64,000 nucleotides of DNA from NCBI GenBank assembly GCA_040400605.1, contig JBBAPZ010000006.1, positions 97,524 to 161,523 on the forward strand. Reading direction: 5' to 3'. The translations under genes and the position numbers were made by a program. Positions within the stretch are counted from its first letter, which is position 1. Each line of letters starts with the position of its first letter. Origin of the DNA: Candidatus Sericytochromatia bacterium. Lineage in GTDB: Bacteria > Cyanobacteriota > Sericytochromatia > S15B-MN24 > JAQBPE01. This document shows, piece after piece, positions 8,167 through 63,960 of this stretch. The notes beneath the pieces are model-generated. The model made no database searches. It was given only the letters and a program-made list of their open reading frames with translations, and was not told the origin of the DNA.

Positions 8167-9174
8167 TCACTCGCTTCGGGTGGCATTAACCACCGAGACA
8201 GGCACGCGTGCCTCCAGAGAAGCCGCGTTCCACGTGGCATTCGTGGAGGCAGTGATCACGGTCTGCCCCGGCGCCAACGACACAACACGCCCCGTCTCAC
8301 TGACCGTCACGATGCTCGAATCACCCGTACCCCAATGGACATCCGCATCGATGGCACCACCCCACGTCGTGATTGTCGAACGCAACCACGACGTATCCCC
8401 GACTCGCATCGTCAGTGCAGACGGTGTCACACCAATGCCGCGGATCGCCTCTTTCGCCAAAGGCGCCTGCACCGTGACCTGGGTCTTCGCAGTTACACCG
8501 TCGTAGGACTGTGAGGAAGCCTCAATCGTGACAACACCTGGCCTTAGTGCCAACAAATCACCATTATCCCCGATCTGAGCGATCGTTGGATCAGAACTGC
8601 GCCAACGCGCCTGACCGACCACCTCGGCACCACCCGCACCCTGCGAAAAAACGAATTGCCACGTTCTGCCAACGGCTACCAGCGCGTCCGTGGGCTGAAT
8701 GCGCGCCTGAATAATACCGTCAAACCGATTTTCTGGTAACCGAGCTTCCACCCCGACACTCCCATCGGTTCCCAGGACACCTGCCGCCGACACAACCTGT
8801 AACGTGGCGCGGGCTTCACGCGGCGGGTTGACGGTTGTTGCCAAAATCGTGACACGTCCCTCACGCAAACCACGGACAAGGCCTCGGTCAGTGATACTCG
8901 CGATTGCCTGGGATGATAGTCGCCACCGTGCGGCCACACCAAGCGCCAGTCCCGCCTCGTCACGTCCAATCACGTTGAATTGCCCCGTCTCTCCCACCCG
9001 AATGCTCAAGGTGGCCGGCTGCACCTCCAGGCTGAACAGGCGCGAGCCCTCCGAATTACCTGGATTCGGTGCCAACGGCAGATCATTGTTGCAGGCCATT
9101 GCCCCACACGCAGCGACAGCCACCAGCAAACGACGGGCGCCAAGGCGATTCAAATGACGGAAAAGCCGGGTCAT
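8167..9174 (-). CDS. lipoprotein with tandem bacterial Ig-like (Big_2-type) domains
   Basis: Lipobox LLVAVAACGAMAC followed by about four ~75-aa repeats with the Big_2-like pattern (L.V.P....L.VGET..L.A......V.W.SSD..IA.V...G.V.A...G...ITA). Its start overlaps the upstream phosphatase stop. Confidence 0.6.
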   Translation of the reverse strand: MTRLFRHLNRLGARRLLVAVAACGAMACNNDLPLAPNPGNSEGSRLFSLEVQPATLSIRVGETGQFNVIGRDEAGLALGVAARWRLSSQAIASITDRGLVRGLREGRVTILATTVNPPREARATLQVVSAAGVLGTDGSVGVEARLPENRFDGIIQARIQPTDALVAVGRTWQFVFSQGAGGAEVVGQARWRSSDPTIAQIGDNGDLLALRPGVVTIEASSQSYDGVTAKTQVTVQAPLAKEAIRGIGVTPSALTMRVGDTSWLRSTITTWGGAIDADVHWGTGDSSIVTVSETGRVVSLAPGQTVITASTNATWNAASLEARVPVSVVNATRSE

Positions 9175-9908
9175 TCCCTGACATCCTCACTTTTTCGGGG
9201 AGCCACGCGCTCCCAGTGTGTCATCAACCACGCATACACACGTTGCCAGACACCTCGCCCCGTGCTTGGGGTGACCGTCGCTGGGATTGGCCGATTCAGC
9301 AAGCGACACTGTTCGGTCACCGGCAACTCCGACCACCAGGCGTAAAAATCCGGTACATAATCAAGCTTGACACGCTGTCCGTGCTCATTGAGTCCGAACT
9401 GACGCATTTCTGCGATCGCCTCCTCAACAGTCCAGCCATCCCGCGCGATGCGCAGGCAAGCAGCCATCGTGCCAGTGCGATCCACCCCGTGGTAACAATG
9501 AAAAAAAACCACGCCGTGCGCCGGGTCCGTCACATTCATCAAAAACCGTGCGGTGTCGAGATGCGACGGAGCAGCCAGTGGTGGAAGCGGCAAATAGACA
9601 TAGTTCAACGCAAGCTCAGCCAACACCTCCCGTTCATGATCACTCTCCAGTCGCAAATTGATCACCGTGTGCACACCGAGTTCCTTCAACCGGACAAAGG
9701 CCTTACGGCTCGGCTGCGCACCGCGAAAAATCCCTGCACCCAACTCACCAAAACGCTCAACTTGATCACCCCCGGGAAACCAACGGGTCACCTCACCATA
9801 AAGCCACAGACCGGCCTGACGCAACACGGGCAAGTGCTCTCCGGCACGCCTGACACGCGTCGCAAAACCATGCACCATCGCAGCAAAACGCGGCGAATCC
9901 GACTGCAT
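9171..9908 (-). CDS. protein tyrosine / dual-specificity phosphatase (CX5R active site)
   Basis: HCYHGVDRTG is the CX5R P-loop of the PTP/DSP superfamily. Start taken at ATG 9908 (MQSDSPRF) with GAGG upstream; the longer track ORF to 9980 would overlap the kinase. Confidence 0.7.
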   Translation of the reverse strand: MQSDSPRFAAMVHGFATRVRRAGEHLPVLRQAGLWLYGEVTRWFPGGDQVERFGELGAGIFRGAQPSRKAFVRLKELGVHTVINLRLESDHEREVLAELALNYVYLPLPPLAAPSHLDTARFLMNVTDPAHGVVFFHCYHGVDRTGTMAACLRIARDGWTVEEAIAEMRQFGLNEHGQRVKLDYVPDFYAWWSELPVTEQCRLLNRPIPATVTPSTGRGVWQRVYAWLMTHWERVAPRKSEDVRE

Positions 9909-9963
9909 GAGCGGCCTCGTCGGAACACGGGGCTCAACGTCGCGTGCAATCACACAGCCATCG

Positions 9964-11745
9964 TCAAGATCCTGGCCCATCGTGTCCTCCCCTCGCGCCC
10001 TTGGTCATCCCGACACCGGTCACATCAGGCGCACTCGGCGGCAACCGCAATCGAAACGTCGCACCAGCACCACGCTCAGAAAACACCTCCAGCGTTCCGC
10101 CAAATTTACGTACGATCTGCTGACTCACAGACAATCCAAGCCCCGTGCCCTTGCCCACCTGTTTCGTCGTAAAAAACGGATCGAAAATTTTGCCCAAAAT
10201 GGCATCGGGTACCCCTTCGCCATTATCGACAATATCCACCTGGACCATCCCTGCCTCAAATGCGGTCAAAATGCGCAAAACACCCCCTGCCTCATCACCA
10301 AATCGCGCCTGAATCGCATCCATCGCGTTCACGATCAGATTCGTTAAAACCTGCCCCAACTCCGTCAACGTCCCCATCACGTGCGGTAACTCAACCAAAG
10401 TCAATTCGCGAACCACCGACATATGCTTCAAACGGTGACTAAGCAACTCCAGCGTATCGTGCAAAACGGCTGTCAACGATATAGGTCGGTACTCCGGTGC
10501 GGGTTGTCGCGCAAAATTCAACAAATTCACCACAATACGCTTGCACCGTTGCGCACCTGCCTCAACCAAGGCCAGTTGATCGCACAACTCAGGATCCTCG
10601 ATATCCATCCGCAACAACTGCACATTCGCCAAGATCGCCGAAAGCGGATTATTCAGTTCGTGCGCGACACCCCCCGCAAGCGTACCAATCGTCGCCAATT
10701 TCTCGGTCTGCACCAACTGGGCCTGCGTTTCCTGCAAACTTCTCAACGCCTGCTCCAACTCAGCCGTACGCTCCTTCACGCGCTGCTCGAGCACTTCATT
10801 AAGGCCATTGATCGTCAAGTAGGCCTCCGCATTCTGCAAAACCAAGGACAACTTCAGCGCGACCTGATTCACAAAGGTCACGTCATTGCGGTGAAACAAC
10901 CGATGTTCCGCCGCACGAAATACAGCCAAAACCCCGTACAACTTTCGATTGGCCATAATCGGTGTCAACGCGCCATGCCACGCCCGCCGCGCATCCTCCT
11001 GCACCAACGCCTCAGTCTCGCCCCCCACAACCACGCTTCGCCTCAGATCCAAACAGCGCAAAATCGCCTGCCCCTGCTCCGTTGAACGCCAAGCGTCTGT
11101 GGGTGCAACACCGACAACCGCCTCCAAAGCCAGATTTGTTGGGTCCCCGACGCACATAACCACCCACGTCTGCTCGGCGGACACCGTATCATGGATCTGA
11201 CGCACACTGTGCTTCAAAATTTCTTTCACATCATAAGACGCAATCAGAAAATCAAAATCACCCAACGCCCGTCCATAAGCCTCCTTGTACCGAACCTCCA
11301 AGCGTGCATTCAACGCATCCAACGCCATCACCCACTGCGCCTGCAAGGATGCCAGCATAGCCAAATCCACCGCCTCAACCGATGCACCAGATTCAAACTC
11401 AATCTGCACCAGGCCTACAGCTCGCGTACCCCTTGCCAACGGCAGCATCACGACATCAGCATCCGCCAAACCGCCTTCAAGGGTTCCAACCACAGCGCCA
11501 CGCCCATAAAGTGGCGCCGGTTCAGCCAAAATGCGCTGGCGCGACCACTCGGGCCTGACCCCGTGACGGGGCAGGTTCCAACCCGGCACGAATCGGACCG
11601 AGCGTATAGGCCACAACTGTCTCAAAATCGTCTCGACTGTCTTTAAACAGGCTGCCGCATCCCCATCCGCATTCAATATCGTCCCAAGCGACGCAAGCAA
11701 TTGCCAGCGATAATCCACGTTGTCCCTAACCAAATCTGCGTGCAT
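9964..11745 (-). CDS. cytoplasmic sensor histidine kinase with two GAF-like N-terminal domains (HisKA + HATPase_c), no adjacent response regulator
   Basis: H-box [11 protein letters not shown] box, G1 (DNGEGV) and G2 (GTGLGLS) boxes all present. No TM segments. Start at ATG 11745 (MHADLV) with AAGGG 9 nt upstream; the alternative start at 11826 would overlap the upstream gene by 62 nt. Confidence 0.8.
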
Positions 11746-11764: not shown

Positions 11765-12910
11765 TCAACGAGCCGCGTGATACGCCCGCATCCCAGCGAA
11801 CGCAACGTCATAACGATTATGCGCATTCCACATCATGTACCCTGTCGCACGCGCATCACTGCCTGCGCGAAGTTGCTCCACGATGTAGCGCGCGTCAAAA
11901 CGGGACACCTTGTAAGGCATCGCCTGCATCCAGGGCCGCACCACCACAGATGTGCCGGCAACCCGATCATTCAACAGGGTCAACCCCTTGAACATAAACT
12001 GATACGGTGCATTGGCCGGCCGCGCAATGCCTGCAAAACCATCATTAAAATGAGAAGGATACAACATTGGGCATAGGACATCCGTGTGGCGCGCCAAATC
12101 AGACAAGCGTTGCCCGGTGATGCGTACGTCAATGTCCATTGCCCAAGCCATAATGCCGTACACATCAATGGATACACGCATCCCCAAGCGATGAAGCGTC
12201 TCGTGCGCGCGCTTCAGAAAGGCAGTGATAATCGCATGCTTGGGTGTTCGCGATTCATCGAAGGCGTAACGCGCATTTTGTGTATCGCCCATTGCCGGAA
12301 AGCGGATGTAGTCAAACTGCACTTCATCAACCCCCGCTTTCACGAGCTCCTTTGCCAAGTCGATGTTATAGTCTTGACACGCCGGTAAAGATGGATCCAA
12401 CCACGACTGTCGGCCCAATTCCTTCCACGGGCCACCCTTGATAGACCGTGCCGCCAATGAAGGCAGCTTCTGCGCCACAATTGGATCATGAAAACACACC
12501 ACACGCCCCGCGACCTGAATCCCATAACGATGTGCCAACTGCACCCTCGCTTTGAGATCGCGCAAAGGCCCCGCAGCACTGGCCTTAACCGTGCGAGCCA
12601 AGGCCACTTCGGAGGGATAGGACACAATCCCGCCTTCATCCTTGGCATCAAAAACAATCAGATTACCCCCCGCAGCCTTCAGATTTTTCAACAGTGTCTC
12701 AAATCTCGGCAAAGCCATTGACGTCGCCGTCACGTAAATCCCACGCAACGGGGGTACTGTCGCCGCATCTTGTGTGACCCCAGACACGTCCCCGATTGTT
12801 CGCGCCTTTGCAGCAATCATTTTCGATTGGGATTCTTGGGCCATGATGGGTGCGCCAGTCAAACCCAACGTGGTCATCAGCGCGCCAAACAAGGCGGTTC
12901 TTACACCCAT
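11765..12910 (-). CDS. secreted putative glycoside hydrolase-like protein (GHL10/DUF4015-like TIM barrel)
   Basis: Signal peptide MGVRTALFGALMTTLGLTGAPIMAQ, then the pattern typical of the family-10-like glycosyl hydrolase (YngK-like) proteins (GIYVTA...LIVFDAKDEGG...DYIRFP). Family assignment from memory only. Confidence 0.55.
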   Translation of the reverse strand: MGVRTALFGALMTTLGLTGAPIMAQESQSKMIAAKARTIGDVSGVTQDAATVPPLRGIYVTATSMALPRFETLLKNLKAAGGNLIVFDAKDEGGIVSYPSEVALARTVKASAAGPLRDLKARVQLAHRYGIQVAGRVVCFHDPIVAQKLPSLAARSIKGGPWKELGRQSWLDPSLPACQDYNIDLAKELVKAGVDEVQFDYIRFPAMGDTQNARYAFDESRTPKHAIITAFLKRAHETLHRLGMRVSIDVYGIMAWAMDIDVRITGQRLSDLARHTDVLCPMLYPSHFNDGFAGIARPANAPYQFMFKGLTLLNDRVAGTSVVVRPWMQAMPYKVSRFDARYIVEQLRAGSDARATGYMMWNAHNRYDVAFAGMRAYHAAR

Positions 12911-13149
12911 GTCAATCCTCCTTTACCCATGGTGCGCGCCATTTGGCGCGACCGGGCAATCGCACGGTCATTATTCCCGCAAGCGGTCCATTTCATTCCA
13001 AAGGTGACGAAGAAGTTGATTTTTGCCATTTCACGACGCGCTGCCTGCAATCACCAGATAACCTGATTTTTGTTTGTAACGTCCGACAGGTACAGGAATA
13101 CCTAAAAATAGATCAGGACGATGGCGAAATCGGTCAGGATACCGGTTGA

Positions 13150-13917
13150 TTGCGGGATGAACATCTTATGACGGATCCAACAATCAGACCTGTCGTTGAA
13201 ACAGGCGACGCAGTATTGCATGAACAATCCCCACGTGAAAGCTTCAGGGCGCACCTTTGGGATGCAATCAAATGCAACTGGCAGCGCAAAAGATACTACG
13301 CTTATCACACGAGCGGTGCCTCCAAAAAACTGTCCAATCATCTGATCGTGAGCGAATTCATTGCCCTGCCGGTGGCGCTTCTGTTCGATTTACTGGCCAA
13401 ACGCTTTCAAAACCGTGGTATCGCCATCGTCAGTGGTGACTTTGTATCAATGAAAACGGTCAAATCACCCGATACCCCGCCAAAATACCGCTGTGCGGCA
13501 AGCGACGACAGTTTCCGCCAGATCAAAGCCGACGTGAAGGCCTATCGCCAGGCGCTTCAAAAGGCGCTGTCCCAAAATGACTTTTGGAGCGCCTCAATGC
13601 TCACTTACACCCTGATCGAATCGATTGAGAACCGGGAGATTGCCGAACGATGCCACTATGCGATGTACAAACACATCGCGGAGTCCGTCGGTCTGGCAAC
13701 CCTTCACGCGGCGGACCACTCGGAGGCTAGCCACGGCGCGAGCAACCAGCTCGCCATCGCATTGATTGCCGTTCAAGCCCAATCACTCACATGGGTCGAG
13801 CCGATTGACCGCCAGGCGCAGATGCTGCATCGCAACGGGGTCGGCATCATCGTCAATGACGTGCCGGACATTCCCTTCAAACACGCATATGAAACCAGGA
13901 TCGCGAAGCACTGTTAA
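13150..13917 (+). CDS. hypothetical protein (orphan, lower-GC gene)
   Basis: 255-aa ORF with clean codon periodicity and no recognisable motif. Local GC is about 50-52% against ~60% for the flanks. It is flanked by AT-rich non-coding DNA on both sides. Confidence 0.5.
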   Translation: MRDEHLMTDPTIRPVVETGDAVLHEQSPRESFRAHLWDAIKCNWQRKRYYAYHTSGASKKLSNHLIVSEFIALPVALLFDLLAKRFQNRGIAIVSGDFVSMKTVKSPDTPPKYRCAASDDSFRQIKADVKAYRQALQKALSQNDFWSASMLTYTLIESIENREIAERCHYAMYKHIAESVGLATLHAADHSEASHGASNQLAIALIAVQAQSLTWVEPIDRQAQMLHRNGVGIIVNDVPDIPFKHAYETRIAKHC

Positions 13918-14228
13918 AGTACCTCACGAGGCATTGATTCAGGTGAACGCCACGCTGACACATCGGTTTTTGTTTAAAAGGTAAATGGCAAAATTAAAAC
14001 ATCAGGCAATCAATTGCCACGTGCTGTACAACACCAAAAATTTAGTTGCCAATCAAGGCATTTTGTTACAGGACATTCCGAGAGTTATACAGTGACGCAT
14101 AGGTTTTAGTTCAAAAATTAACCAGCGGAATCAAAACGTCAGGCGATGACTCGCCAATATTGATCATCAGCCAAAAATTGGTCATCAAACAATGCGTTGC
14201 TGCACGATGGTCAACATTGACAATTGGG

Positions 14229-15638
14229 TCAAGTGACAGCGGGAGGTCTGAGCCATCTAACATAGACCCCAAACCCGATCGCGATCCAAACCAGAAACAT
14301 GGACCAGACAGTCCAACTGAGACCCCACATCAGATAAAGGTTAATCGCGATCGCCAATCCCGGTAAGAATGGCGCGCCGGGGCATCGAAACGGCCGCGGC
14401 GCCTCCGGAAACTCGTGTCTCAACACCAGCACCGCCGCACTGACGACGCTAAAAGCAGCCAGAGTACCCAAGCTGACAAGGTCCGCCAATTGCTCAAGCG
14501 GCACCACCATTGCCAAAAACGCGGTCACGCCGCCCAAGATGAGCACGGCCGCATAAGGCGCACCGGTTGTCGGGTGCAAACGGGTAAATGCCGCCGGCAT
14601 CAATCCATCCCGGCTCATCACGTATAAAATGCGGGTTTGCCCGATCGAAGCAACCAAAATCACGCTCAGGATCCCCACCACCGCGACCACGGACAGAACC
14701 AAGGCCGCAACCGGATGACGCATTTGTTCCAACGCATGCGCCAGAGGTTCCTGGACGTGCCTCAGCTCATTCATTGGCAAAACCGCAACCAACACCGTCG
14801 CAACAGCGACGTAAAGCAGCGTCACCAGGGTGAGTGACAGCGCGATGGCGCGTGGCAAGGTACGTTGCACGTCTCGGGTTTCCTCCGCCACTGTCGATAC
14901 CGCATCGAAGCCGATAAACAGAAAAAACACCACCGCCGCACCCGACACAACGCCCCCCCAGCCAAAAGGCATAAAAGGGTTAAAATGCGCAAACTGCATG
15001 CCTGGAACACACAAAATCAAAAATAATCCCAATACCGCAATTTTCGCTGTAACCATGGCGTTATTGAAACGCGCACTCTCACGAATACCGAACAGCAACA
15101 AGGCCGTCACGAACGCGACGGCTGCACCAGCCGGGAGATTGAACCAACCACGTGCCGAGGTGCCGGGTATCAAGTGGCCGGGCGCATAGAGCAACGTTTT
15201 GGGCAAGGTGACACCGAACTGGGCCAGCAAGGCCTGCAGATAACCGCCCCAACCAGCCGCCACAGCCGAGTTGGACAACCCATATTCGAGCAGCAGATCC
15301 CATCCCATCAAAAAAGCGACGAGTTGTCCGAAGGCGGCATAGGCATAACTATACGCGGACCCGGACGCAGGCATCATCACCGCCAGTTCACTGTAGCAAA
15401 GCGCCGCAAGCAAACAGGCGATCGCAGCCAGCACAAAGGACAACACGACCGCAGGTCCCGCATGTTGCGCCGCCACCAACCCCGGCATCACAAAAATGCC
15501 AGCGCCAATCGTGCAACCGATACCCAAGGCCGTCAGGGACCAAAGCCCCAGCACGCGCTTGTGATCAGATTCAGAACCTGATTCACCCACCGCAGTAAAA
15601 CTGGCGATCGACTTCCTAACAAACCACGGATGTGACAA
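14229..15638 (-). CDS. APC-family amino acid permease
   Basis: 469 aa with 12 predicted TMs. The N-terminal motif LGLWSLTALGIGCTIGAGIFVMPG is typical of amino acid/polyamine/organocation transporters. Confidence 0.85.
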   Translation of the reverse strand: MSHPWFVRKSIASFTAVGESGSESDHKRVLGLWSLTALGIGCTIGAGIFVMPGLVAAQHAGPAVVLSFVLAAIACLLAALCYSELAVMMPASGSAYSYAYAAFGQLVAFLMGWDLLLEYGLSNSAVAAGWGGYLQALLAQFGVTLPKTLLYAPGHLIPGTSARGWFNLPAGAAVAFVTALLLFGIRESARFNNAMVTAKIAVLGLFLILCVPGMQFAHFNPFMPFGWGGVVSGAAVVFFLFIGFDAVSTVAEETRDVQRTLPRAIALSLTLVTLLYVAVATVLVAVLPMNELRHVQEPLAHALEQMRHPVAALVLSVVAVVGILSVILVASIGQTRILYVMSRDGLMPAAFTRLHPTTGAPYAAVLILGGVTAFLAMVVPLEQLADLVSLGTLAAFSVVSAAVLVLRHEFPEAPRPFRCPGAPFLPGLAIAINLYLMWGLSWTVWSMFLVWIAIGFGVYVRWLRPPAVT

Positions 15639-16232
15639 AAGCGTTTCCCTTCAACCTGACACGTCAGCGTATGACCCCAGGTATCACTGATCGTGTTACA
15701 ACGGCAAACAGCACAAACCGATCGCAAAATACCGGGTATTTTATCCCCCTTGTTGCGCCCGCTGCTCGGCTGTTACCCCGAAGCAGCGTGCCAACTGACA
15801 ATCACGGACATTGTACCCCCATCTTGCCAAGTCCCACAGGCTTGCGGGCGCGCTAATCGTCAGGGCGCACACTCAGGAATGATGGATGATATGGCAAGGG
15901 GTCATCTGGTGATACCGTCTCTGGCTCGCGTGAATTCGCAGCAGCCAGGTTCCGGATTTTTTGCATTTGTCACGCAGGTTTTAAACCTGAGTACGTTGCG
16001 TCACGACATAACCAACAGCGTTTGGGAACCAGCCGGTCCAGTCGGCGGATCGTTTGCCAAAGCCGGTCACACCGGTTCAAAATAAACGGGGGCGCAGCAT
16101 CAGGACCGCGCTCACCATCACACCGCGTTGACGCATTTGGTGTTAATGCTCACGTTCCGTCCAGGCTCACGTGAGCGCCAGGCGCGACGCTGGTCGTCAA
16201 GCCGTCGCCAATCAAAAGAAAGGTCCTCCCAC

Positions 16233-17435
16233 GTGCGCTTGGTTTCCATCGGACTCACCGTTTTGATTGCCGTCACCATGGCCGCAACAGCCATCGACGC
16301 AGCGGGGATGCAAACGCCCCGCGTGCGTTTTCGTGAGCTGGGATACACCATTGGACGTCATCGCCCAGGGCCCTTCAACGCCATCACGGATGTCCAAGGT
16401 GTCAAAGTGGGGCACGTCACACTGACGCGCGGCGAAGGTTCGCTCAAACCGGGTGAAGGTCCCGTGCGAACGGGCGTCACCGCGATCTTGCCTCGCGAGG
16501 ATGTCTGGAACCGCAAGGTGTTTGTCGGGCATTCGGTCCTGAATGGCAACGGTGAGCTGACCGCCAACGCCTGGATGAAAGAATCCGGTTGGCTTGAAAC
16601 CCCAATCATCTTGACCAGCACCCTCAGCGTTGGGCGTGCGATGGACGGGGTGGTTGAATGGATGACCCTGCGTTATCCACAAATGGGTGTCAGCGATGAC
16701 GTCGTATTGCCCGTTGTGGGCGAATGTGATGACTCCTTTCTGAACGATCAACGCGGACGTCACGTGTCCGCAACCGATGTTGTAAACGCCATCAACAACG
16801 CAAGCGCAGGCCCCGTTCCCGAAGGCTGTGTGGGTGCAGGAACCGGCATGGTCGCCTATCGCTTCAAAGGTGGAATCGGGACAGCAAGTCGTCGGATTGG
16901 TGACGCAAGCAACGCGTACACCATCGGCGCCTTGGTCAACTGCAACATGGGTGCTCGCCGCGACCTCAGAATTGACGGCGTACCAGTTGGAGAACACCTC
17001 ACCGACTGGCAACCGCAACGCAAACCATCCGAAGGTTCGATCATCATTGTCGTCGCAACGGATGCACCACTGTTGCCTCACCAACTGGAGCGCGTCGCCC
17101 GACGGGCTTTCCTCGGCCTGGGTCGCACCGGTACACACGTCTCACATGGCTCAGGCGATTTTGCACTCGCTTTTTCCACCGCGAACGACATTCCGCATCA
17201 AACCGCCAAAACGGTGCAATCCTACCAGTCCATTCACCACAGCATTCTCAACCCACTCTTTGAAGCCACGATCGAAGCCGTCGAAGAAGCCATCCTGAAC
17301 GCACTGACAACCGCCCGGACCACCACCGGAAGAGATGGGCACATCATCCATGCGCTACCTTACGATGCCCTGATGCGCGTCATGACACGGTATGGAAACG
17401 TGCCGGCCAAATACAGCCCTCGCGAAGCTCATTGA
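16233..17435 (+). CDS. peptidase S58 (DmpA / L-aminopeptidase D-Ala-esterase) family protein
   Basis: Strong similarity pattern to the DmpA/P1 family (GYTIGRHRPGPFNAITDVQGVKVGHVTL...GVTAILP...). Start uncertain: GTG 16233 gives a signal-like N-terminus; the track's upstream extension is basic low complexity. Confidence 0.7.
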   Translation: MRLVSIGLTVLIAVTMAATAIDAAGMQTPRVRFRELGYTIGRHRPGPFNAITDVQGVKVGHVTLTRGEGSLKPGEGPVRTGVTAILPREDVWNRKVFVGHSVLNGNGELTANAWMKESGWLETPIILTSTLSVGRAMDGVVEWMTLRYPQMGVSDDVVLPVVGECDDSFLNDQRGRHVSATDVVNAINNASAGPVPEGCVGAGTGMVAYRFKGGIGTASRRIGDASNAYTIGALVNCNMGARRDLRIDGVPVGEHLTDWQPQRKPSEGSIIIVVATDAPLLPHQLERVARRAFLGLGRTGTHVSHGSGDFALAFSTANDIPHQTAKTVQSYQSIHHSILNPLFEATIEAVEEAILNALTTARTTTGRDGHIIHALPYDALMRVMTRYGNVPAKYSPREAH

Positions 17436-17838
17436 TTGTTCACCAACTCCATGGCTGGCATCAGCGATCGCCCCACGCGACAGGCGCGCACTGATTGGTT
17501 GTCAAATCAGTGGTTGAAACCGCACCTCAGTGCGTGAATACCTTGCATCTGGTGAACACGTGTTCCACAAAAGCGCTTGCGTCACCGCCTTGAAGTAATT
17601 CTGGCGGTGGCTGCGCGATACGTTGACCCGCGTACTGGTGAATGAAGCTGTCGCTGGCCAAAGAATATCAACAGCGGCTTTGCCAGGATTATTGTTGCCT
17701 CTGCAAACAGACCTGACAAAGCAGCGATGGTCACTATTGAACCCGGCCTGTCCTCCGCCTGGTTCTTTAATACCCTGTCTGGCAAGGCTGTTGGGATCCA
17801 CGGTAGAATGAAAGGGTAAAATCAATCGGAGTTTAACC

Positions 17839-19296
17839 ATGCAGTTGACCTTTAACGAAGCCCTCCTAAGCACGCAAACCGATGCGCTGATTGTGGCTGT
17901 GCGTTCCCACCCATCTCACAGCGATTCGACACTGAATCGCTATCTGCAAACGCTGTTACAAGATGGTACTTTCAGCGGCGCGGTGGATGAAGTCGAAGTC
18001 GTGTACCCGGTGCAAGGCTTGGGATGCAAGCGTGTGATTTTCGTGGGACTGGGCGAGGAAAACGTGACGCCAGCGAGTTGGCGTAAGGCTATCACCGCAG
18101 GCTATCAGCATGTCAAGGACAAGGTTTCAGTGCTTGGCGTGCTGATGCCAAGTGATGCAGACCCAAGCATGCTTGCTGAGTCTACCGTAGAAACAGTGGT
18201 ATCACTCAGCTATCGTTTTCACCCCTATCGTACCCATCCCCCCGAGCCATCCGAAAAAACGCTCACCGAACTGGTATTGCCGTGCGCCGACAAATCAAAC
18301 CCGGCGAACGCAGCGCGCGATGCCCTTGTATTGGCAAATGTGGTCAACCAGGCACGCGACTGGTCCAATCGACCAGGCAACCAACTGACTGTACCGGAGT
18401 TGCTCAAGGCAATTGAATCAGTGTCCAGTGAACACGGTTTGTCCTGCCAGGTGCTGGATGCGGCGGCACTGAAGACTGAGGGTCTGCATTTGCTGCTCGG
18501 TGTCGGCCGTGCCAGCATCCATCAACCGGCGCTGGCGGTGGTAACCTACCAGGGCGCGCCCAACAACGACGCAACCATTGCCTTGGTTGGCAAAGGCCTG
18601 ACCTTTGACACGGGTGGTATCTGCATCAAACCCCGTGCCGGAATGGAAGAGATGAAGAGCGACATGCACGGGGTTGCCACGGTACTTGGTACGCTGGCTG
18701 TTGCCGCCTCACGCAGATTACCGGTTAATCTTGTGGTTGCTATGCCTCTGGCGGAGAACATGCCGGGTGGCAACGCACTCAAGCCGGGGGATATCCTCAA
18801 AGCTTATGACGGTCAAAGCGTTGAGGTCATTGATACGGATGCGGAGGGACGACTGGTTTTAGCGGATGCGATCGCCTGGATCATCCAACACCATCAACCC
18901 GGCATCCTCATCGATGTCGCCACCTTGACGGGTTCAATCATCACCACCTTGGGTTACGAGGCCACCGGTCTGTTCAGCCCGGACGACGCGCTTGCCGAAT
19001 CATTGACGCAAGCAGGCGAACGCACGGGTGAACGCCTGTGGCGCATGCCCATTTGGCCAGCCTACGAAAAACATATCAAAAGCGACATCGCAGACTGGCG
19101 TAACGCCACCCCGATGAAAGGGGATGCCATCGCAGCCGCAGCCTTTTTGAAACAATTCGTTGGCCAAACCCGTTGGGCGCACCTCGACATCGCCGGCCCC
19201 TCCTATTTGCCGGAATCCAAACAGCATCTCCCCAAAGGCTCCACAGGCGTCGGCATTCGGCTCCTCATCGATTGGCTGACCCATCACCACGCATAA
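17839..19296 (+). CDS. pepA: leucyl aminopeptidase (M17 family)
   Basis: VGKGLTFDTGG and NTDAEGRL signature motifs. GGAG RBS 8 nt upstream of ATG 17839. Confidence 0.9.
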   Translation: MQLTFNEALLSTQTDALIVAVRSHPSHSDSTLNRYLQTLLQDGTFSGAVDEVEVVYPVQGLGCKRVIFVGLGEENVTPASWRKAITAGYQHVKDKVSVLGVLMPSDADPSMLAESTVETVVSLSYRFHPYRTHPPEPSEKTLTELVLPCADKSNPANAARDALVLANVVNQARDWSNRPGNQLTVPELLKAIESVSSEHGLSCQVLDAAALKTEGLHLLLGVGRASIHQPALAVVTYQGAPNNDATIALVGKGLTFDTGGICIKPRAGMEEMKSDMHGVATVLGTLAVAASRRLPVNLVVAMPLAENMPGGNALKPGDILKAYDGQSVEVIDTDAEGRLVLADAIAWIIQHHQPGILIDVATLTGSIITTLGYEATGLFSPDDALAESLTQAGERTGERLWRMPIWPAYEKHIKSDIADWRNATPMKGDAIAAAAFLKQFVGQTRWAHLDIAGPSYLPESKQHLPKGSTGVGIRLLIDWLTHHHA

Positions 19297-30449: not shown

Positions 30450-30862
30450 TGCCAGCCTCCATACCGTACCAAGTCGGGCACGCGATTCGCTTCTTCTCAA
30501 GAAACGCAACGCCCCCCGCACAGCCCCCACGCTACCAAAGGCATCGGGAACAAGTGGAGGGTTGCAGGCGACAAAAGTCCTTGGTCAAGCAGACAGGCTC
30601 GTCAAGTGAGCGTGAAACCTGTGGCCAAAAGCGATAGGGAAAAACGTCGATTGGTGGTCAAATTTTAACTGTTGGTTGTATGACAGCGGTTAAGTACTTG
30701 ATGTTATAAACTGACAATAAAAGTCTTGAACAAAAGAGACGCAGCGTTGTATATACCCAAAATCACCCGTTCAATCGCGGCATCAATTTTCTGACCTACC
30801 CCCAGGCCCGACACCAACCACGTCAACAGGGCATTCAGTTATCGACAAACGACACAACTGGG

Positions 30863-31683: not shown

Positions 31684-31760
31684 TGGTCGGGATGACAGGA
31701 TTCGAACCTGCGACCCCCTCGTCCCGAACGAGGTGCGCTACCAAGCTGCGCTACATCCCG
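31684..31760 (-). tRNA. tRNA-Pro (anticodon CGG)
   Basis: Reverse complement folds as a 77-nt cloverleaf: acceptor CGGGATG/CATCCCG, anticodon loop TTCGGGA, T-loop GGTTCGAATCC, CCA encoded. Confidence 0.85.
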
Positions 31761-51106: not shown

Positions 51107-51188
51107 GCGCATGACCAAAGACAAAACGCTGTCACAAGCTTGGGCGACAAATCATTGATGCCAAACGATTGTAACAAGGAGTTACCGA

Positions 51189-51602
51189 ATGACTGAAGCG
51201 CCGAGCGCCTTGCTCCGTGTCCGGATGGGGGCCCATGACGCCCATTATGCGGGTGATTTGGTCGCAGGTGCCACCTTGACAGCCTTGTTCGGGGATGTTG
51301 CCACGGAGTTGCTCATACAACTGGATGGTGACGAAGGGCTGTTCGTGGCCTATGACAACATTGAATTCAAGGCGCCTGTGTTTGCTGGTGACTACCTGGA
51401 GGTACGCGGTACCATCACACGGATTGGCAATACATCGCGAGCGATGTCCTTTACAGCTCACAAAGTCATTCAGTTGTGCCGCCGTGAGGGGCTCGCGCCG
51501 AGTGCCGCGGAGGTACTGGGCGAACCGATTTTGGTCGCAAGGGCCAGTGGCACCTGTGTCACGCCCAAATCCTGTCAAAGGCATTCGGCACCGCAAACGT
51601 GA
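51189..51602 (+). CDS. hotdog-fold protein (resembles the 3-aminobutyryl-CoA ammonia-lyase / thioesterase-like family)
   Basis: [34 protein letters not shown] and the overall ~135-aa size fit a hotdog fold. The subfamily call is from memory and tentative. Confidence 0.5.
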
Positions 51603-51764
51603 CAATGCCGGGAAGGTGCATTGAGGGGTGACCGAATGCTTGGTTTACCGTGAATGGCAGCGCGTGATTGCCTGATTTTTTGAACTTGCCACACACGGTT
51701 TTGACATCGACCACTACGTCACTGTTTAGCGGTTCAACGGTTATGGCGTTGTTGGTACACGCGA

Positions 51765-52469
51765 TCAAAAGCCGAGTTGATAGATCCGGCGGTAATCACG
51801 CAGTTCATGGAAGTGTACGAGGCGTTCGTGGGGTTGAAAGACTGCGCACGCGGGCGGGTGGGGATCATATTTGAGTTGGGCGGTGCAACCGACGTTGATG
51901 ATGTAGCGATCCGCCGGATTCAGTTCCACCGTGTGGTGCCCGGTTTCCAGTGGGTGATCCGTGCACCAGTGTGCTTTGTTGGCAGGCCAATGATGCAAAC
52001 GGGTGCGGTGGGTATGGCCCGCGAACATGACGGATTGCGTCAGGCGCGCAAAGGTATCCCGAATGGTTTCCGGAAGTCGCAACAGTGCAAATGGGTTACC
52101 GATGGTCGCGTGGGTGTACAAAACGTCATGTTCCGTCAGTTGCAGCGGCAAGGTCGCCAGATAGTGTTTGTTTTCGTCACTGAGATCGGTACGGGCCAAC
52201 TCGGTGTGGCGACGCGATTGTTCGCTGAAAAAATGCAATTGTTCCAGTTGATGTTCAGGAATGGTGACGCCGATGTCGTGGTTGCCTTTGATCACGGGAA
52301 TGTCGGGGCGTGCCCGAAAAAAATCGACGACAGAATTGTGGGCGTGTCCGTGAACAACGAGATCACCCAAGCAGATCAAGCGGTCGACGCCTTGACGTTC
52401 CAGGTGATCGACAACCCGGCAAAAAGGGTCCCAGTCGCTGTGGATATCGGTCAAAATGCCGATGCGCAT
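51765..52469 (-). CDS. metallophosphoesterase (calcineurin-like)
   Basis: MRIGILTDIHSD...LICLGDLVVHG...GNHD...GHTH metal-binding motifs. Confidence 0.7.
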   Translation of the reverse strand: MRIGILTDIHSDWDPFCRVVDHLERQGVDRLICLGDLVVHGHAHNSVVDFFRARPDIPVIKGNHDIGVTIPEHQLEQLHFFSEQSRRHTELARTDLSDENKHYLATLPLQLTEHDVLYTHATIGNPFALLRLPETIRDTFARLTQSVMFAGHTHRTRLHHWPANKAHWCTDHPLETGHHTVELNPADRYIINVGCTAQLKYDPHPPACAVFQPHERLVHFHELRDYRRIYQLGF

Positions 52470-52800
52470 GCGCTTGCTCCTTGGTTTTTCCAAAACGAAG
52501 CCTTGGTGCTTATTATGCCACTCCCGAAGCGCCTTCGAAACCGCCGCAGCGCAAGTGAGCGTGAAACAGCGCAAACATCGTTGATGGAATCAAGCCAATC
52601 ACTCGCTGGCAGTCGCGGCAAGCCAGGCGGTCATGTGTCTGTATCGTCCAGACGGTGGCGCTTCAGACAATAGCACCAAGCTTTAACGGATCACGGTTCA
52701 CCCAGATCGCCGTGGCCCTGCACGTGGCGCATCCAAGCGCGGCGAGAACGCATCGGACGAATATTTGACGGCTCACGCCAGAAAAAATGATAATGGATTT

Positions 52801-61966: not shown

Positions 61967-62048
61967 TGGGGACAGCGGGACTTGAACCCGCACGACTCGA
62001 AGTCAGGCGATTTTAAGTCGCATGCGTCTGCCATTCCGCCATGCCCCC
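61967..62048 (-). tRNA. tRNA-Leu (anticodon TAA), CCA not encoded
   Basis: Reverse complement: acceptor GGGGGCA/TGTCCCC (one G-T pair), D-arm TGGCGGAATGGCAGACGC, anticodon loop CTTAAAA, long variable arm and T-loop GGGTTCAAGTCCC. Confidence 0.8.
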
Positions 62049-62255
62049 AGCTTGCAAGACAACTGCCTGCCTCTCCACTATATCATACCCACGCCAAAAC
62101 GATCTCAAAACCGATTTGCGTGCAAGTGGCAAGAGGCACCAAACGGTTGGTTAAAAACAAACTGGATTTTGTTGCGCCATTCCTGTCACACCTGTGTTAA
62201 AATTGACACGTGTACAGACTGCTTGGACTGTCAAAATGGCAATTGGCCAAGGTCC

Positions 62256-63107
62256 ATGGCGTGCGCGACAGTCGAGGAAGAAGGGTTTATCGTGCGTCAA
62301 CAATCACTTTCCGCCAAGATTATCCTTGAGCAATTACGGGTTCTGGGGATGAACAAAACGGCGTTCGCTCGGCGGTTGGGAGTGAGTCAGGACTATGTTT
62401 ATCGTGTCTTGAATGGGCGTATTGCGTTTCCGCACGCACGGGAGACGATTGAGCGCATGGCTGAGATCTGTCAATTGGATCCATTTACTTTTGCCGAGTA
62501 TCGGGAACTGGACGAGGCGTTGTCGACATCGGCTCGCCTAGTTTGGCAGCGCCTGCGTGAACGGGGAATGACGCGGGAAGATTTGTTCCAGGCCATGGGC
62601 GGGCGAATCAGCCGCCCGTATTTCAACAGCATTTTGCGGGGCGATCAGCCGTTTCCGAGTAATCGGGCGTATATTCAGATGTTTGCGTTGGCACTTGACT
62701 TGCCGCCGACCGCATTCAAGGAATTTGGGCACAAACACACCCCCCGTTGGACGCAAGAGGAACTCGTCGAGCAAGAAGAGCGCAGCTTCAGCCTATTTTT
62801 TGACAAAATGATGGCTGATTACGGCTATGCCCGCTACCCAATCGGTTTGACGGTATTGAATGATGCCAACGTTCTGCAGTTTTTTCCGGAGAAACAGCAA
62901 TTGGATGCAGGTGTTCAGCTAATCCTGGAGCGGATGGGTGAACTTGGCATGGGCTTCAAGGAGTTAAACAAGGTGGCTGGCATTCCGACCGACGATTTGC
63001 GCCGCTTGTTCACCGATGCGGAAGCCGTCGCTGGCATGCGCCCAGAAGTTGAGACGATTCAATCCGTGTTGCACGTGGCACAGCAGCTAGAGCGCAGCGA
63101 ACACTAA
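62256..63107 (+). CDS. triple helix-turn-helix (XRE/Cro-C1-like) DNA-binding protein
   Basis: Three repeats of an HTH pattern: LRVLGMNKTAFARRLGVSQDYVYRVLNG, LRERGMTREDLFQAMGGRISRPYFNSILRG and MGELGMGFKELNKVAGIPTDDLRRLF. ATG 62256 chosen; GTG 62292 with a strong GAGGAAG RBS is also possible. The track's 62022 start overlaps the tRNA-Leu gene. Confidence 0.6.
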   Translation: MACATVEEEGFIVRQQSLSAKIILEQLRVLGMNKTAFARRLGVSQDYVYRVLNGRIAFPHARETIERMAEICQLDPFTFAEYRELDEALSTSARLVWQRLRERGMTREDLFQAMGGRISRPYFNSILRGDQPFPSNRAYIQMFALALDLPPTAFKEFGHKHTPRWTQEELVEQEERSFSLFFDKMMADYGYARYPIGLTVLNDANVLQFFPEKQQLDAGVQLILERMGELGMGFKELNKVAGIPTDDLRRLFTDAEAVAGMRPEVETIQSVLHVAQQLERSEH

Positions 63108-63627
63108 ATCACGACACAGCGGTTGCTGTCCAAAACCTTTATGGCAAATTTAACAACAAAAAACAGGCTCGCCGTGATATTCAGTGCCAGCCTGACACAT
63201 CTTTACCCGTGAAAGCGTTTTGGATCGCAAACACGCGACAACCGACCCGCCAAGGGTCTTACGGGGCTACGCTTTGCTGAAACGTAGCCGTTTTCTTGTG
63301 GTTCAAGTGCCCCGATGGTGTGTGCTTGCCGATGTGTCGCGTGCGATGTCTGTCGGCTGTGGGCTGGAATGGCAATCAGCTGCCATCGCTCAGGACCGTG
63401 TGGATGGTCGGTCGGGGATGATTCGTCAGACTTGGCTAACTCAGTCCACAATGACATTCGTCTACTGAGCGTTGCAGCGATGTCCGTCGTAGGAGTCGAA
63501 GTCAGTCTTGGGACAGTGGCGTCCAGGTTCGGAGAAGGTCGTCTGAACAGTGAGGCGCTGATGGTTGAGGGCCCCAACGGTTTGTTTGACACTTCGATGG
63601 TGCTGGTGTAACATTTTAAATCGTGAC

Positions 63628-63704
63628 GGGACGTAGCGCAGCTTGGTAGCGCATCTGCTTTGGGAGCAGAGGGTCGCTGGTTCGAATCCAGTCGTCCCGA
63701 CCAT
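63628..63704 (+). tRNA. tRNA-Pro (anticodon TGG)
   Basis: Acceptor CGGGACG/CGTCCCG, anticodon loop TTTGGGA, T-loop GGTTCGAATCC, CCA encoded. Confidence 0.85.
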
Positions 63705-63714
63705 CCTGGTTTTG

Positions 63715-63788
63715 CGGGAGTAACTCAATGGTAGAGTACCTGCCTTCCAAGCAGGTTGTTGCGGGTTCGAGTCCCGTCTCCCGCTCCA
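63715..63788 (+). tRNA. tRNA-Gly (anticodon TCC)
   Basis: Acceptor GCGGGAG/CTCCCGC, anticodon loop CTTCCAA, T-loop GGGTTCGAGTCCC, CCA encoded. Confidence 0.85.
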
Positions 63789-63794
63789 TGACGG

Positions 63795-63871
63795 GCGCTC
63801 GTAGCTCAGCTGGATAGAGCATCCGCCTTCTAAGCGGACGGTCGAGGGTTCAAGTCCCCCCGAGCGCGCCA
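63795..63871 (+). tRNA. tRNA-Arg (anticodon TCT)
   Basis: Acceptor GCGCTCG/CGAGCGC, D-arm TAGCTCAGCTGGATAGAGC, anticodon loop CTTCTAA, CCA encoded. The T-stem has one apparent mismatch. Confidence 0.7.
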
Positions 63872-63886
63872 ACTCCGGGTTTTCTT

Positions 63887-63960
63887 GGTGGTTGTGGTGA
63901 AGTGGTCAACACAGAGGATTGTGGATCCTCCATTCGCGGGTTCGAACCCCGTCAGCCACC
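63887..63960 (+). tRNA. tRNA-His (anticodon GTG) with encoded G-1, CCA not encoded
   Basis: Extra 5' G before acceptor GTGGTTG/CAGCCAC, anticodon loop TTGTGGA, T-loop GGGTTCGAACCCC, discriminator C. Confidence 0.75.

Follow-up and report, generated by a model that had tools for sequence, protein, structure and literature searches.

A low-GC stretch of a Sericytochromatia-like chromosome holds a gene of an unnamed, predicted all-helical protein family and copies of a dispersed intergenic repeat

INTRODUCTION

Repetitive extragenic palindromic (REP) sequences and bacterial interspersed mosaic elements (BIMEs), miniature inverted-repeat transposable elements (MITEs) and the small dispersed repeats of cyanobacteria are short, non-coding, lineage-specific and intergenic. 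They lie mostly past stop codons and in convergent spacers, sometimes in tandem, and carry a short hairpin. Here we describe a repeat of ~100 nt that resembles them in all of these respects, together with the gene that it follows. Both lie at positions 12911–14228 of a 64-kb stretch of contig JBBAPZ010000006.1 (Candidatus Sericytochromatia bacterium), the whole of which is called the window below, between a DUF4015 gene (11765–12910, minus strand) and an amino-acid permease gene (14229–15638, minus strand). The repeat also departs from the described elements. REPs are strong palindromes of 20–40 nt, whereas each copy of the spacer repeat is ~100 nt long with a hairpin of 4–6 bp; the copies are old, sharing 48–62% identity, with no insertion polymorphism seen; and neither a REP-associated tyrosine transposase (RAYT) nor another transposase was seen among the open reading frames (ORFs) examined, no dedicated RAYT search having been made.

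The protein encoded by the gene calls to mind several helical families. Ferritin-like di-iron carboxylate proteins (ferritin, bacterioferritin, rubrerythrin, aldehyde-deformylating oxygenase) are four-helix bundles with E-x-x-H ligands and two metal ions bound in the core. Histidine phosphotransfer (HPt) domains such as CheA P1, ArcB HPt, Ypd1 and AHP are four-helix bundles whose helix 2 carries a phospho-accepting histidine in an HxxKG-type motif. Imelysin-like M75 proteins, including EfeO and EfeM, are all-helical, are thought to be duplicated helical bundles, have a conserved HxxE motif with a putative site between the halves, and are periplasmic proteins or lipoproteins (PMC3143127). The likeness of our protein to the di-iron bundles and to the imelysin-like HxxE proteins is architectural only.

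The original prediction for this DNA described a low-GC islet with an orphan ORF and repeat-bearing flanks, and read it as a horizontally acquired cassette or a structured non-coding element. We argue instead that 12911–14228 is probably native chromosome of a deep-branching, Sericytochromatia-like bacterium, made up of one real, monocistronic gene (13168–13917) that encodes a cytoplasmic member of a widespread all-helical family, and of an AT-rich spacer derived from the repeat.

RESULTS

A normal gene between two spacers

At 0.499, the GC content of positions 12911–14228 is the lowest that the window shows over this length, 1318 nt (0.2 percentile; mean for the window 0.558, standard deviation 0.020). 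The claim of a low-GC stretch thus holds, while its flanks have 55–57% GC and not the ~60% that had been given. The ORF inside it, first delimited as 13150–13917, has a GC content of 0.536, the eighth lowest among 46 long ORFs of the window. Its GC content by codon position is 0.57/0.41/0.63, in agreement with the good coding periodicity described before, and the pattern is like that of the DUF4015 gene (0.59/0.47/0.59) and of the permease gene (0.60/0.47/0.65). At third codon positions (GC3) the ORF reaches 0.633, above the mean of 0.619 for the 46 ORFs, and its Karlin codon-bias distance (B) is 0.392, compared with 0.353 ± 0.081 for ORFs of 150–400 codons, where it ranks 11th of 27.

The two intergenic regions are different. 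The divergent region upstream of the ORF, 12911–13167, has a GC content of 0.494, and the convergent spacer at 13918–14228 (311 nt) one of 0.412, the lowest among the 29 inter-ORF gaps of the window. The GC dip is therefore due to these two regions and not to the ORF, and the "islet" amounts to an ordinary gene with a spacer on each side, of which one is very AT-rich.

The convergent spacer contains two copies of a dispersed repeat

The spacer at 13918–14228 separates the 3′ ends of the ORF and of the permease gene. Its two similar 23-mers start at 13996 and 14133, and CCAAAAATT follows at 14034 and 14171, in exact register at a spacing of 137 nt. The similarity is longer than was described earlier: 13956–14019 and 14093–14156 match at 47 of 64 positions, and CCAAAAATT then comes in register in each copy. 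Over its best 50 nt the repeat has 37 matches, a value reached by none of 500 dinucleotide shuffles, so that the direct repeats proposed in the original prediction lie beyond chance. Tandem Repeats Finder misses the 137-nt duplication because it is too diverged.

We refer to the two copies as c1 and c2. Copy c1 (13947–14055, plus strand; nhmmer, 82–87 bits) begins ~30 nt past the ORF stop codon and has a hairpin, GGCAA-TCAA-TTGCC, at 14005–14018. Copy c2 (14083–14190, plus strand; nhmmer) stands in tandem with it at the 137-nt offset, with the hairpin GGCGA-TGAC-TCGCC at 14142–14155; the two hairpins differ by one pair, changed on both sides. A profile made from c1 and c2 finds more copies within the same 64 kb, and the repeat thus recurs, as the original prediction had supposed that it might, contrary to the lack of recurrence that it had named as one of its refuting outcomes. 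With this profile, c3 is found at 51730–51628 on the minus strand (18.6 bits, E = 1.2e-4), a score reached by none of 300 windows shuffled in 150-nt blocks (maximum 12.4 bits). In its full extent (51622–51732) c3 occupies the convergent spacer between a 4HBT thioesterase gene (51189–51602, plus strand) and a metallophosphoesterase gene (51765–52574, minus strand), and it starts ~32 nt past the stop codon of the latter, in the same orientation. Copy c4 (63102–63208, plus strand) starts at the stop codon of a helix-turn-helix (HTH)-domain gene (62022–63107, plus strand); it scores 10.9 bits with the profile of c1 and c2, which 2 of 300 shuffled windows reach, and 23.4 bits (E = 2.3e-6) after c3 has been added. 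A diverged copy, c5, lies at 15917–16008 on the minus strand in the divergent intergenic DNA that precedes the permease gene (14.2 bits, E = 0.0016), and its orthologous site in sister strains scores 22–24 bits (E = 9e-6 to 5e-5). Weaker candidates were found in the window at 30734–30649 and 17587–17493.

Several unlinked sites of one genome thus carry the repeat above chance, which makes it a dispersed intergenic repeat, and on sequence similarity the AT-rich DNA of the islet belongs in part to this family. The copies probably share a common descent, because similarity over ~100 nt far exceeds a protein-binding site. The spacer owes its length and low GC to the two diverged tandem copies of which it consists. 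When the repeat profile was run against the loci of the ORF family in other taxa (42 loci, see below), no match was found.

The abundant 8-mer TGACGCAA overlaps the repeat start; it lies mostly inside genes and is unrelated. A small ORF in c1 (13985–14095, 36 codons) was rejected: c2 has a stop codon in frame, c3 leaves 15 codons, and substitutions between strains show no third-position bias.

Several observations concern the surroundings of the copies. Near c3, the longest ORF, 51132–51605 (minus strand, TTG start, 157 codons), is probably spurious, and the thioesterase and metallophosphoesterase genes both have Pfam support and coding-like GC3. Downstream of c4, at ~420 nt, lies a cluster of four tRNA genes (63627–63960), and single tRNA genes are at 31687–31760 and 61967–62048. 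Strains differ most in the divergent region between the permease gene and the S58 peptidase gene (15639–16127; 38 variable sites in 499 nt, 7.6%, in a three-sequence comparison), yet it holds c5. The S58 start is put at ~16235 in public gene calls and not at 16128. About 283 nt at 17433–17715 are absent from one sister-strain contig, L001. This indel begins with the S58 peptidase stop codon and alters the C-terminus of the peptidase, and it holds a site of the octamer HIP1 (see below) and the weak repeat match at 17587–17493 (E = 0.03); no terminal repeats were seen.

The spacer shows little sign of a structured RNA

The short sequence features listed in the original prediction are present at or near the positions given for them, among them the spacer palindromes GGCAATCAATTGCC at 14005 and GTCAACATTGAC at 14210. 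Palindromes are not in excess over shuffled sequence, however: with 5-nt arms there are 4 compared with 1.6 expected (52 of 500 shuffles reach this number), and with 6-nt arms 1 compared with 0.4 (150 of 500). One of them is not conserved between strains, as a substitution at 14218 in sister strains breaks the palindrome GTCAA-CA-TTGAC.

Rfam gave no match for the region even at E ≤ 1, and nothing relevant in the whole window; one sub-threshold match, to ar35 (21 bits, where the gathering score is 45), falls inside the permease gene. The folding z-scores of the spacer and of the repeat copies range from −1.2 to +1.2 relative to shuffled sequences. For four copies, the RNAalifold consensus energies of the two strands are −2.2 and −4.2 kcal/mol, with 8–10 pairs and almost no covariation, and the only recurring structure is a hairpin of 4–6 bp at a CAGGC block. 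With z-scores of −1.2 and −0.6, no Rfam match and essentially no covariation, the idea of a structured non-coding element finds no support.

We nevertheless considered that the spacer might encode one or more small or structured RNAs, each copy being a transcription unit with a TGGCAAAAT-like extended −10 element or a TTGCCA-N16-AAAAAT site, followed by the short hairpin. A promoter-like site at 14014–14041, the conservation of TGGCAA(A/G/T)(A/T)T in c1, c3 and c4, the hairpin pair changed on both sides between c1 and c2, and a conservation of the spacer between strains that is higher than in other intergenic regions would all fit such units. Against them stand the Rfam, folding and consensus results above and the fact that c2 is without the −10-like motif; as for promoter-like sites, 1 was found where 1.7 are expected from shuffles. 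We regard this explanation as improbable.

The repeat may be an old dispersed element at gene 3′ ends

Copies c1/c2, c3 and c4 start 0–40 nt after a stop codon and are oriented as the upstream gene. The integron attC site shares these traits, being ~60–140 nt long, placed directly after an ORF in the orientation of that ORF, and similar within a genome. The repeat was rejected as an attC site: its copies have no extended imperfect hairpin (z-scores near 0) and no consistent R″/R′ cores at their ends, and neither an array of promoterless cassettes nor an integrase was found in the regions examined.

Alternatively, the copies could be working modules kept by selection and not relics, as shared bidirectional terminators, stabilisers of mRNA 3′ ends or platforms for one DNA-binding protein. 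Three of the four sites begin at that distance and share the direction of the upstream gene, convergent spacers are filled at two sites, and each strand has T-runs (GGTTTTTGTTT for plus; TGAYGTTTT, past the hairpin, for minus). Strain variation, judged from 7 sequences (the window and six sister-strain contigs), is low in c1/c2: c1 has 2 variable sites in 95 nt, and 13918–14187 has 5 in 270, compared with 13 in 257 upstream of the ORF (Fisher p = 0.054). On the other hand, the stems have only 4–5 bp and the region holds no excess of terminator-like sites (4, with 2.5 expected), although the minus-strand site 14018–14005, with 5 pairs and the tail TGATGTTTTA, does pass a lax intrinsic-terminator scan. 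Copy c5 lies upstream and not downstream of its gene, similarity over 100 nt exceeds what a terminator or operator needs, and the core of c2 is substituted in sister strains (14140). Selection for such a role is therefore rather unlikely in our view.

We tentatively suggest, at somewhat less than even probability, that the repeat is an old REP/MITE-like dispersed element that has settled in 3′ spacers, where its short hairpin and T-runs may act as weak 3′-end or termination signals for convergent genes. A lineage-specific intergenic repeat of ~100 nt would have been duplicated in tandem in the spacer studied here.

The ORF belongs to a widespread family without a name

The start codon of the ORF is most likely the ATG at 13168, used in all public gene calls for the locus, which gives a protein of 249 residues encoded by 13168–13917 on the plus strand. 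The 18 nt that a TTG start at 13150 would add contain 4 of the 13 variable sites found in the whole upstream region. The description of the ORF as an orphan does not stand. A word-indexed protein search gave only a 97% identical strain copy, and an exhaustive phmmer search over 1.84 billion representatives gave 599 cluster representatives at E ≤ 1e-3 from at least eight phyla, of which 81 were at E ≤ 1e-30. The genes were located in 42 species-representative genomes, which belong to Candidatus Sericytochromatia, Gemmatimonadota/Longimicrobiales, Riflebacteria/Ozemobacter, Bacteroidota, Planctomycetota, Myxococcota, Gammaproteobacteria and Parachlamydiales. All members with a name in their source are called "hypothetical protein".

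The absence of a known motif was upheld. No family of Pfam-A 2025 or NCBIfam r20 matches the window protein above threshold by profile hidden Markov model; searches with 63 family members gave isolated chance matches only, each in a single member; PADLOC and PHROGs gave no matches for 6 members; and no PDB sequence was matched by the family profile. Histidine kinases and extracytoplasmic function (ECF) sigma factors occur 4 times each among the 80 immediate neighbours of the family genes, within single clades.

The predicted fold is a duplicated helical bundle

AlphaFold2 with a 63-sequence alignment of the family gave a model with a predicted local distance difference test score (pLDDT) of 93.9 and a predicted template modelling score (pTM) of 0.88; the single-sequence prediction without an alignment (pLDDT 40) was useless. 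The model has eight helices, at residues 26–47, 53–81, 113–135, 139–160, 165–187, 193–209, 211–221 and 237–248. Foldseek found nothing at E < 0.1 for it in the PDB or among viral models. When the halves were compared by hhalign, residues 25–91 aligned with 165–231 over 67 columns (probability 98.9%, E = 1.2e-17). By this alignment, a helix-helix-loop unit was duplicated internally to give the protein.

The first unit (residues 25–91; 13240–13440, plus strand) has the pattern F..HL.[ED]AI..N..R...Y, then E63, D74 and GI.IV..D91. The second (residues 165–231; 13660–13860, plus strand) has AM..H169..E172S, then Q203, D214 and G.GI.VN230-D231. Both were delimited by hhalign and by conservation, counted per residue in 163 family members. 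Equivalent positions are H29 (158/158) and H169 (163/163), [E/D]32 (151/158) and E172 (155/163), Y44 and Y184, E63 and Q/H203, D74 and D214, and D91 and D231. Each half therefore carries H-x-x-[E/D] on its first helix and an aspartate (D74/D214) on its second, followed by D91/D231, the aspartate of the loop G-I-x-[IV]-V-x-x-D. Also highly conserved are N37, R40, E157, S173, Q218, H221, N230, P233 and I235. In the 63-sequence alignment H169, N230, P233 and I235 are invariant and ~25 positions are conserved at 90% or more; the window protein retains every one of the conserved positions. The domain is complete in 158 of the homologues. Of these, 59 carry a hydrophobic signal or a lipobox at the N-terminus, 70 are essentially without an extension, and 29, including the clade of the window protein, have a non-hydrophobic, often proline-rich N-terminal extension.

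The His, Asp and Glu motif residues, with E63, E157, N37, R40, Q218 and N230, may form the lining of a His/carboxylate pocket with pseudo-two-fold symmetry inside the helical core, where a metal ion, a pair of ions or a small polar substrate would bind; we think this less likely than not. Such a pocket would be independent of cytoplasmic cofactors, because a large share of the homologues carry signal peptides or lipoprotein signals, and it would work on both sides of the membrane.

No comparison placed the protein in one of the described helical families. Ferritin-like proteins have two E...ExxH ligand sets, whereas the ORF family has H-x-x-[E/D] and no conserved ExxH; there is no sequence or profile match to them, and the model matches ferritin-like structures no better than any helical bundle. 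The family also differs from them in its long conserved loops (DFVSM, GIxVNDVPxIPF), extra helices and many exported members. With the imelysin-like M75 proteins it shares an all-helical, duplicated architecture, an HxxE-type motif and a large share of members with export signals; it does not fit that superfamily as defined by a GxHxxE motif with a Peptidase_M75 profile match and a fold of two four-helix-bundle domains. As for HPt domains, to which the protein does not belong, their HxxKG contrasts with HxxES in the ORF family, and structural matches to them cover less than half of its length and rank alongside those to designed bundles. The presence of histidine kinases at 4 of 80 neighbouring positions is weak support for a phosphorelay, with which exported members are hard to reconcile.

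The gene is probably native

The nearest homologues of the protein, at 46%, 44% and 40% identity, are proteins of Sericytochromatia or cyanobacterial metagenome-assembled genomes (MAGs); those at 46% and 40% come from the Candidatus Sericytochromatia genomes among the 42. The same affinity, judged in both cases from best matches, is shown by the housekeeping neighbour pepA (leucyl aminopeptidase, 17839–19296), 4 kb from the ORF, whose best named homologues are in Sericytochromatia MAGs at 50–55% identity, and it therefore argues for vertical descent of the ORF. The six sister-strain contigs (97–99.7% identical) all have the order DUF4015, ORF, permease and S58 peptidase, where the contig extends that far.

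The original prediction favoured acquisition of the ORF and its AT-rich flanks from another lineage. The stretch is indeed the one of lowest GC for its 1.3-kb length in the window, the locus has no synteny with the Sericytochromatia loci L003 and L004, which carry the closest homologues, and the family is patchy across phyla. The synonymous divergence (dS) of the ORF between strains is, moreover, ~3 times lower than that of the flanking genes (0.03 versus 0.105–0.11), as could result from recent exchange within the species. The coding sequence, however, has GC3 and codon usage typical of the window, an outcome that the original prediction itself had named as speaking against acquisition. Its nearest homologues come from the class in which those of pepA are found as well, and it occupies the same site in every sister-strain contig. 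No integrase, transposase or mobility gene was found around the ORF, whose neighbours are the DUF4015 gene, the permease, peptidases and a histidine kinase; no tRNA gene was found in 12000–16500; only short, chance-level pairs were found as direct-repeat boundaries of the islet; and PADLOC, PHROGs and viral structure models gave no phage or defence signal for the ORF. Acquisition from another lineage is thus largely refuted and very improbable.

Between the window and L056, the most divergent strain, the ORF has 5 synonymous and 12 non-synonymous differences (dS 0.03, ratio of non-synonymous to synonymous divergence, dN/dS, 0.69). The corresponding values are 27 and 11 for the DUF4015 gene (dS 0.105, dN/dS 0.12) and 37 and 13 for the permease gene (dS 0.110, dN/dS 0.11). 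Constraint on the ORF may thus be relaxed in this lineage, and its low dS with unremarkable non-synonymous divergence could stem from a recent exchange of this segment among strains or from weaker constraint. The ratios of 0.69 (L056) and 0.38 (L001), against 0.11–0.14 in the neighbours, and variable sites that fall 6, 4 and 8 times at codon positions 1, 2 and 3 would agree with a gene that is decaying or dispensable in this lineage, the islet being a region where selection is relaxed. However, the frame is intact in 7 of 7 strain sequences, all family positions conserved at 90% or more are kept, and the 8 amino-acid differences from L001/L002 are all at unconserved positions. The counts compared are also small (12 non-synonymous, 5 synonymous), and the high ratio comes mainly from the unusually low dS. 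We give decay of the gene little credence.

The divergent region upstream of the ORF

The region 12911–13167 lies between the DUF4015 gene, whose start codon ends at 12910, and the ORF. It presumably holds both divergent promoters; no match to a consensus sigma-70 promoter was found in it. With 13 variable sites in 257 nt among the 7 strain sequences, it varies more than the convergent spacer does. A GC-rich hairpin, GCGCGCCATTTGGCGCG, with a stem of 6–7 bp lies at 12934–12950 (minus strand), directly upstream of AAGGAGG, the Shine-Dalgarno sequence that serves the DUF4015 gene. It folds within 51 nt at −23.9 kcal/mol (z = −2.4) and has no strain variation inside. The upstream leader hairpin of the original prediction is therefore present, but it is ~220 nt from the ORF start and adjoins the DUF4015 Shine-Dalgarno sequence, so that it is not obviously in the leader of the ORF. 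Without a U-tract on either strand it was rejected as a terminator, and it is likely a 5′-leader stem or palindromic operator of the DUF4015 gene.

The ORF leader has a 23-nt inverted repeat, 13044–13066/13134–13156 (78% complementary), that could pair with the weak Shine-Dalgarno region (leader z = −1.96). Its reading as a switch that masks the ribosome-binding site finds no support: changes between strains at 13051 and 13156 break pairs, and none is compensating.

Other observations in the window

HIP1 is a cyanobacterial palindrome (PMC5861425). Its octamer, GCGATCGC, is the commonest 8-mer of the window, with 22 copies (e.g. 14349–14356) compared with 1.5 expected. This excess stands beside the affinity of pepA to the Sericytochromatia-like, non-photosynthetic lineage. 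A search of the literature on HIP1 and highly iterated palindromes returned no mention of Sericytochromatia among the matches listed.

Just downstream of a GAF histidine kinase gene, on the minus strand, lie genes for a protein with a DSP/PTP-type phosphatase domain (9171–9980) and for a Big_2-domain protein (8167–9174), with ends overlapping or adjacent. The three genes may form a signalling operon.

DISCUSSION

Our results indicate that what looked like an islet of foreign DNA is probably an ordinary gene of a native chromosome, followed by a spacer built from copies of a lineage-specific repeat. Several findings weigh against this explanation, or against parts of it. For the repeat, the copies share only 48–62% pairwise identity over ~105 nt; c5 does not lie at the 3′ end of a gene; a terminator role is made doubtful by the weakness of the hairpins (5 bp, about −7 to −11 kcal/mol); neither terminal inverted repeats nor target-site duplications were seen when the copy ends were inspected by eye; and none of the 6 sister-strain contigs that cover the site shows presence/absence polymorphism of c1/c2. 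Lacking these three hallmarks, terminal inverted repeats, target-site duplication and insertion polymorphism, the repeat was rejected as a MITE in the strict sense. A metagenome-wide scan for the repeat core AAAACRTSAGGCRATNANTYGCC returned 9 matches without flanking similarity, from a collection that contains neither the host genome nor the sister-strain contigs. For the gene, dN/dS is 0.4–0.7 compared with 0.11–0.14 in both neighbours, from only 14–17 substitutions. All-against-all clustering of the neighbours at the 42 loci found no conserved neighbour of the family genes, and the 80 immediate neighbours fall into 71 different Pfam families. What we propose for the pocket is a deduction of function from conserved residues and a predicted fold.

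A bolder combination of the two parts can be imagined, although we consider it unlikely to hold as a whole. The ORF would then represent an undescribed superfamily, a duplicated helical bundle of ~220 residues with a pseudo-symmetric His/Asp/Glu site, cytoplasmic and exported forms and members in at least eight phyla, with new metal-dependent or metal-sensing chemistry outside every curated family and solved structure; separately, the ~100-nt element would be an unrecorded repeat that is specific to the Sericytochromatia-like lineage and truly functions where genes end at their 3′ side.

The ORF family is sizeable and is named in no curated library, which makes it a reasonable target for a domain-of-unknown-function (DUF) entry, for structure determination and for a study of metal binding. 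The AT-rich spacer indicates that a poorly sampled, non-photosynthetic relative of the cyanobacteria carries a dispersed repeat of its own, which is relevant to genome evolution in Cyanobacteriota, and the excess of HIP1 in such a relative bears on comparisons of genome evolution within the same phylum.

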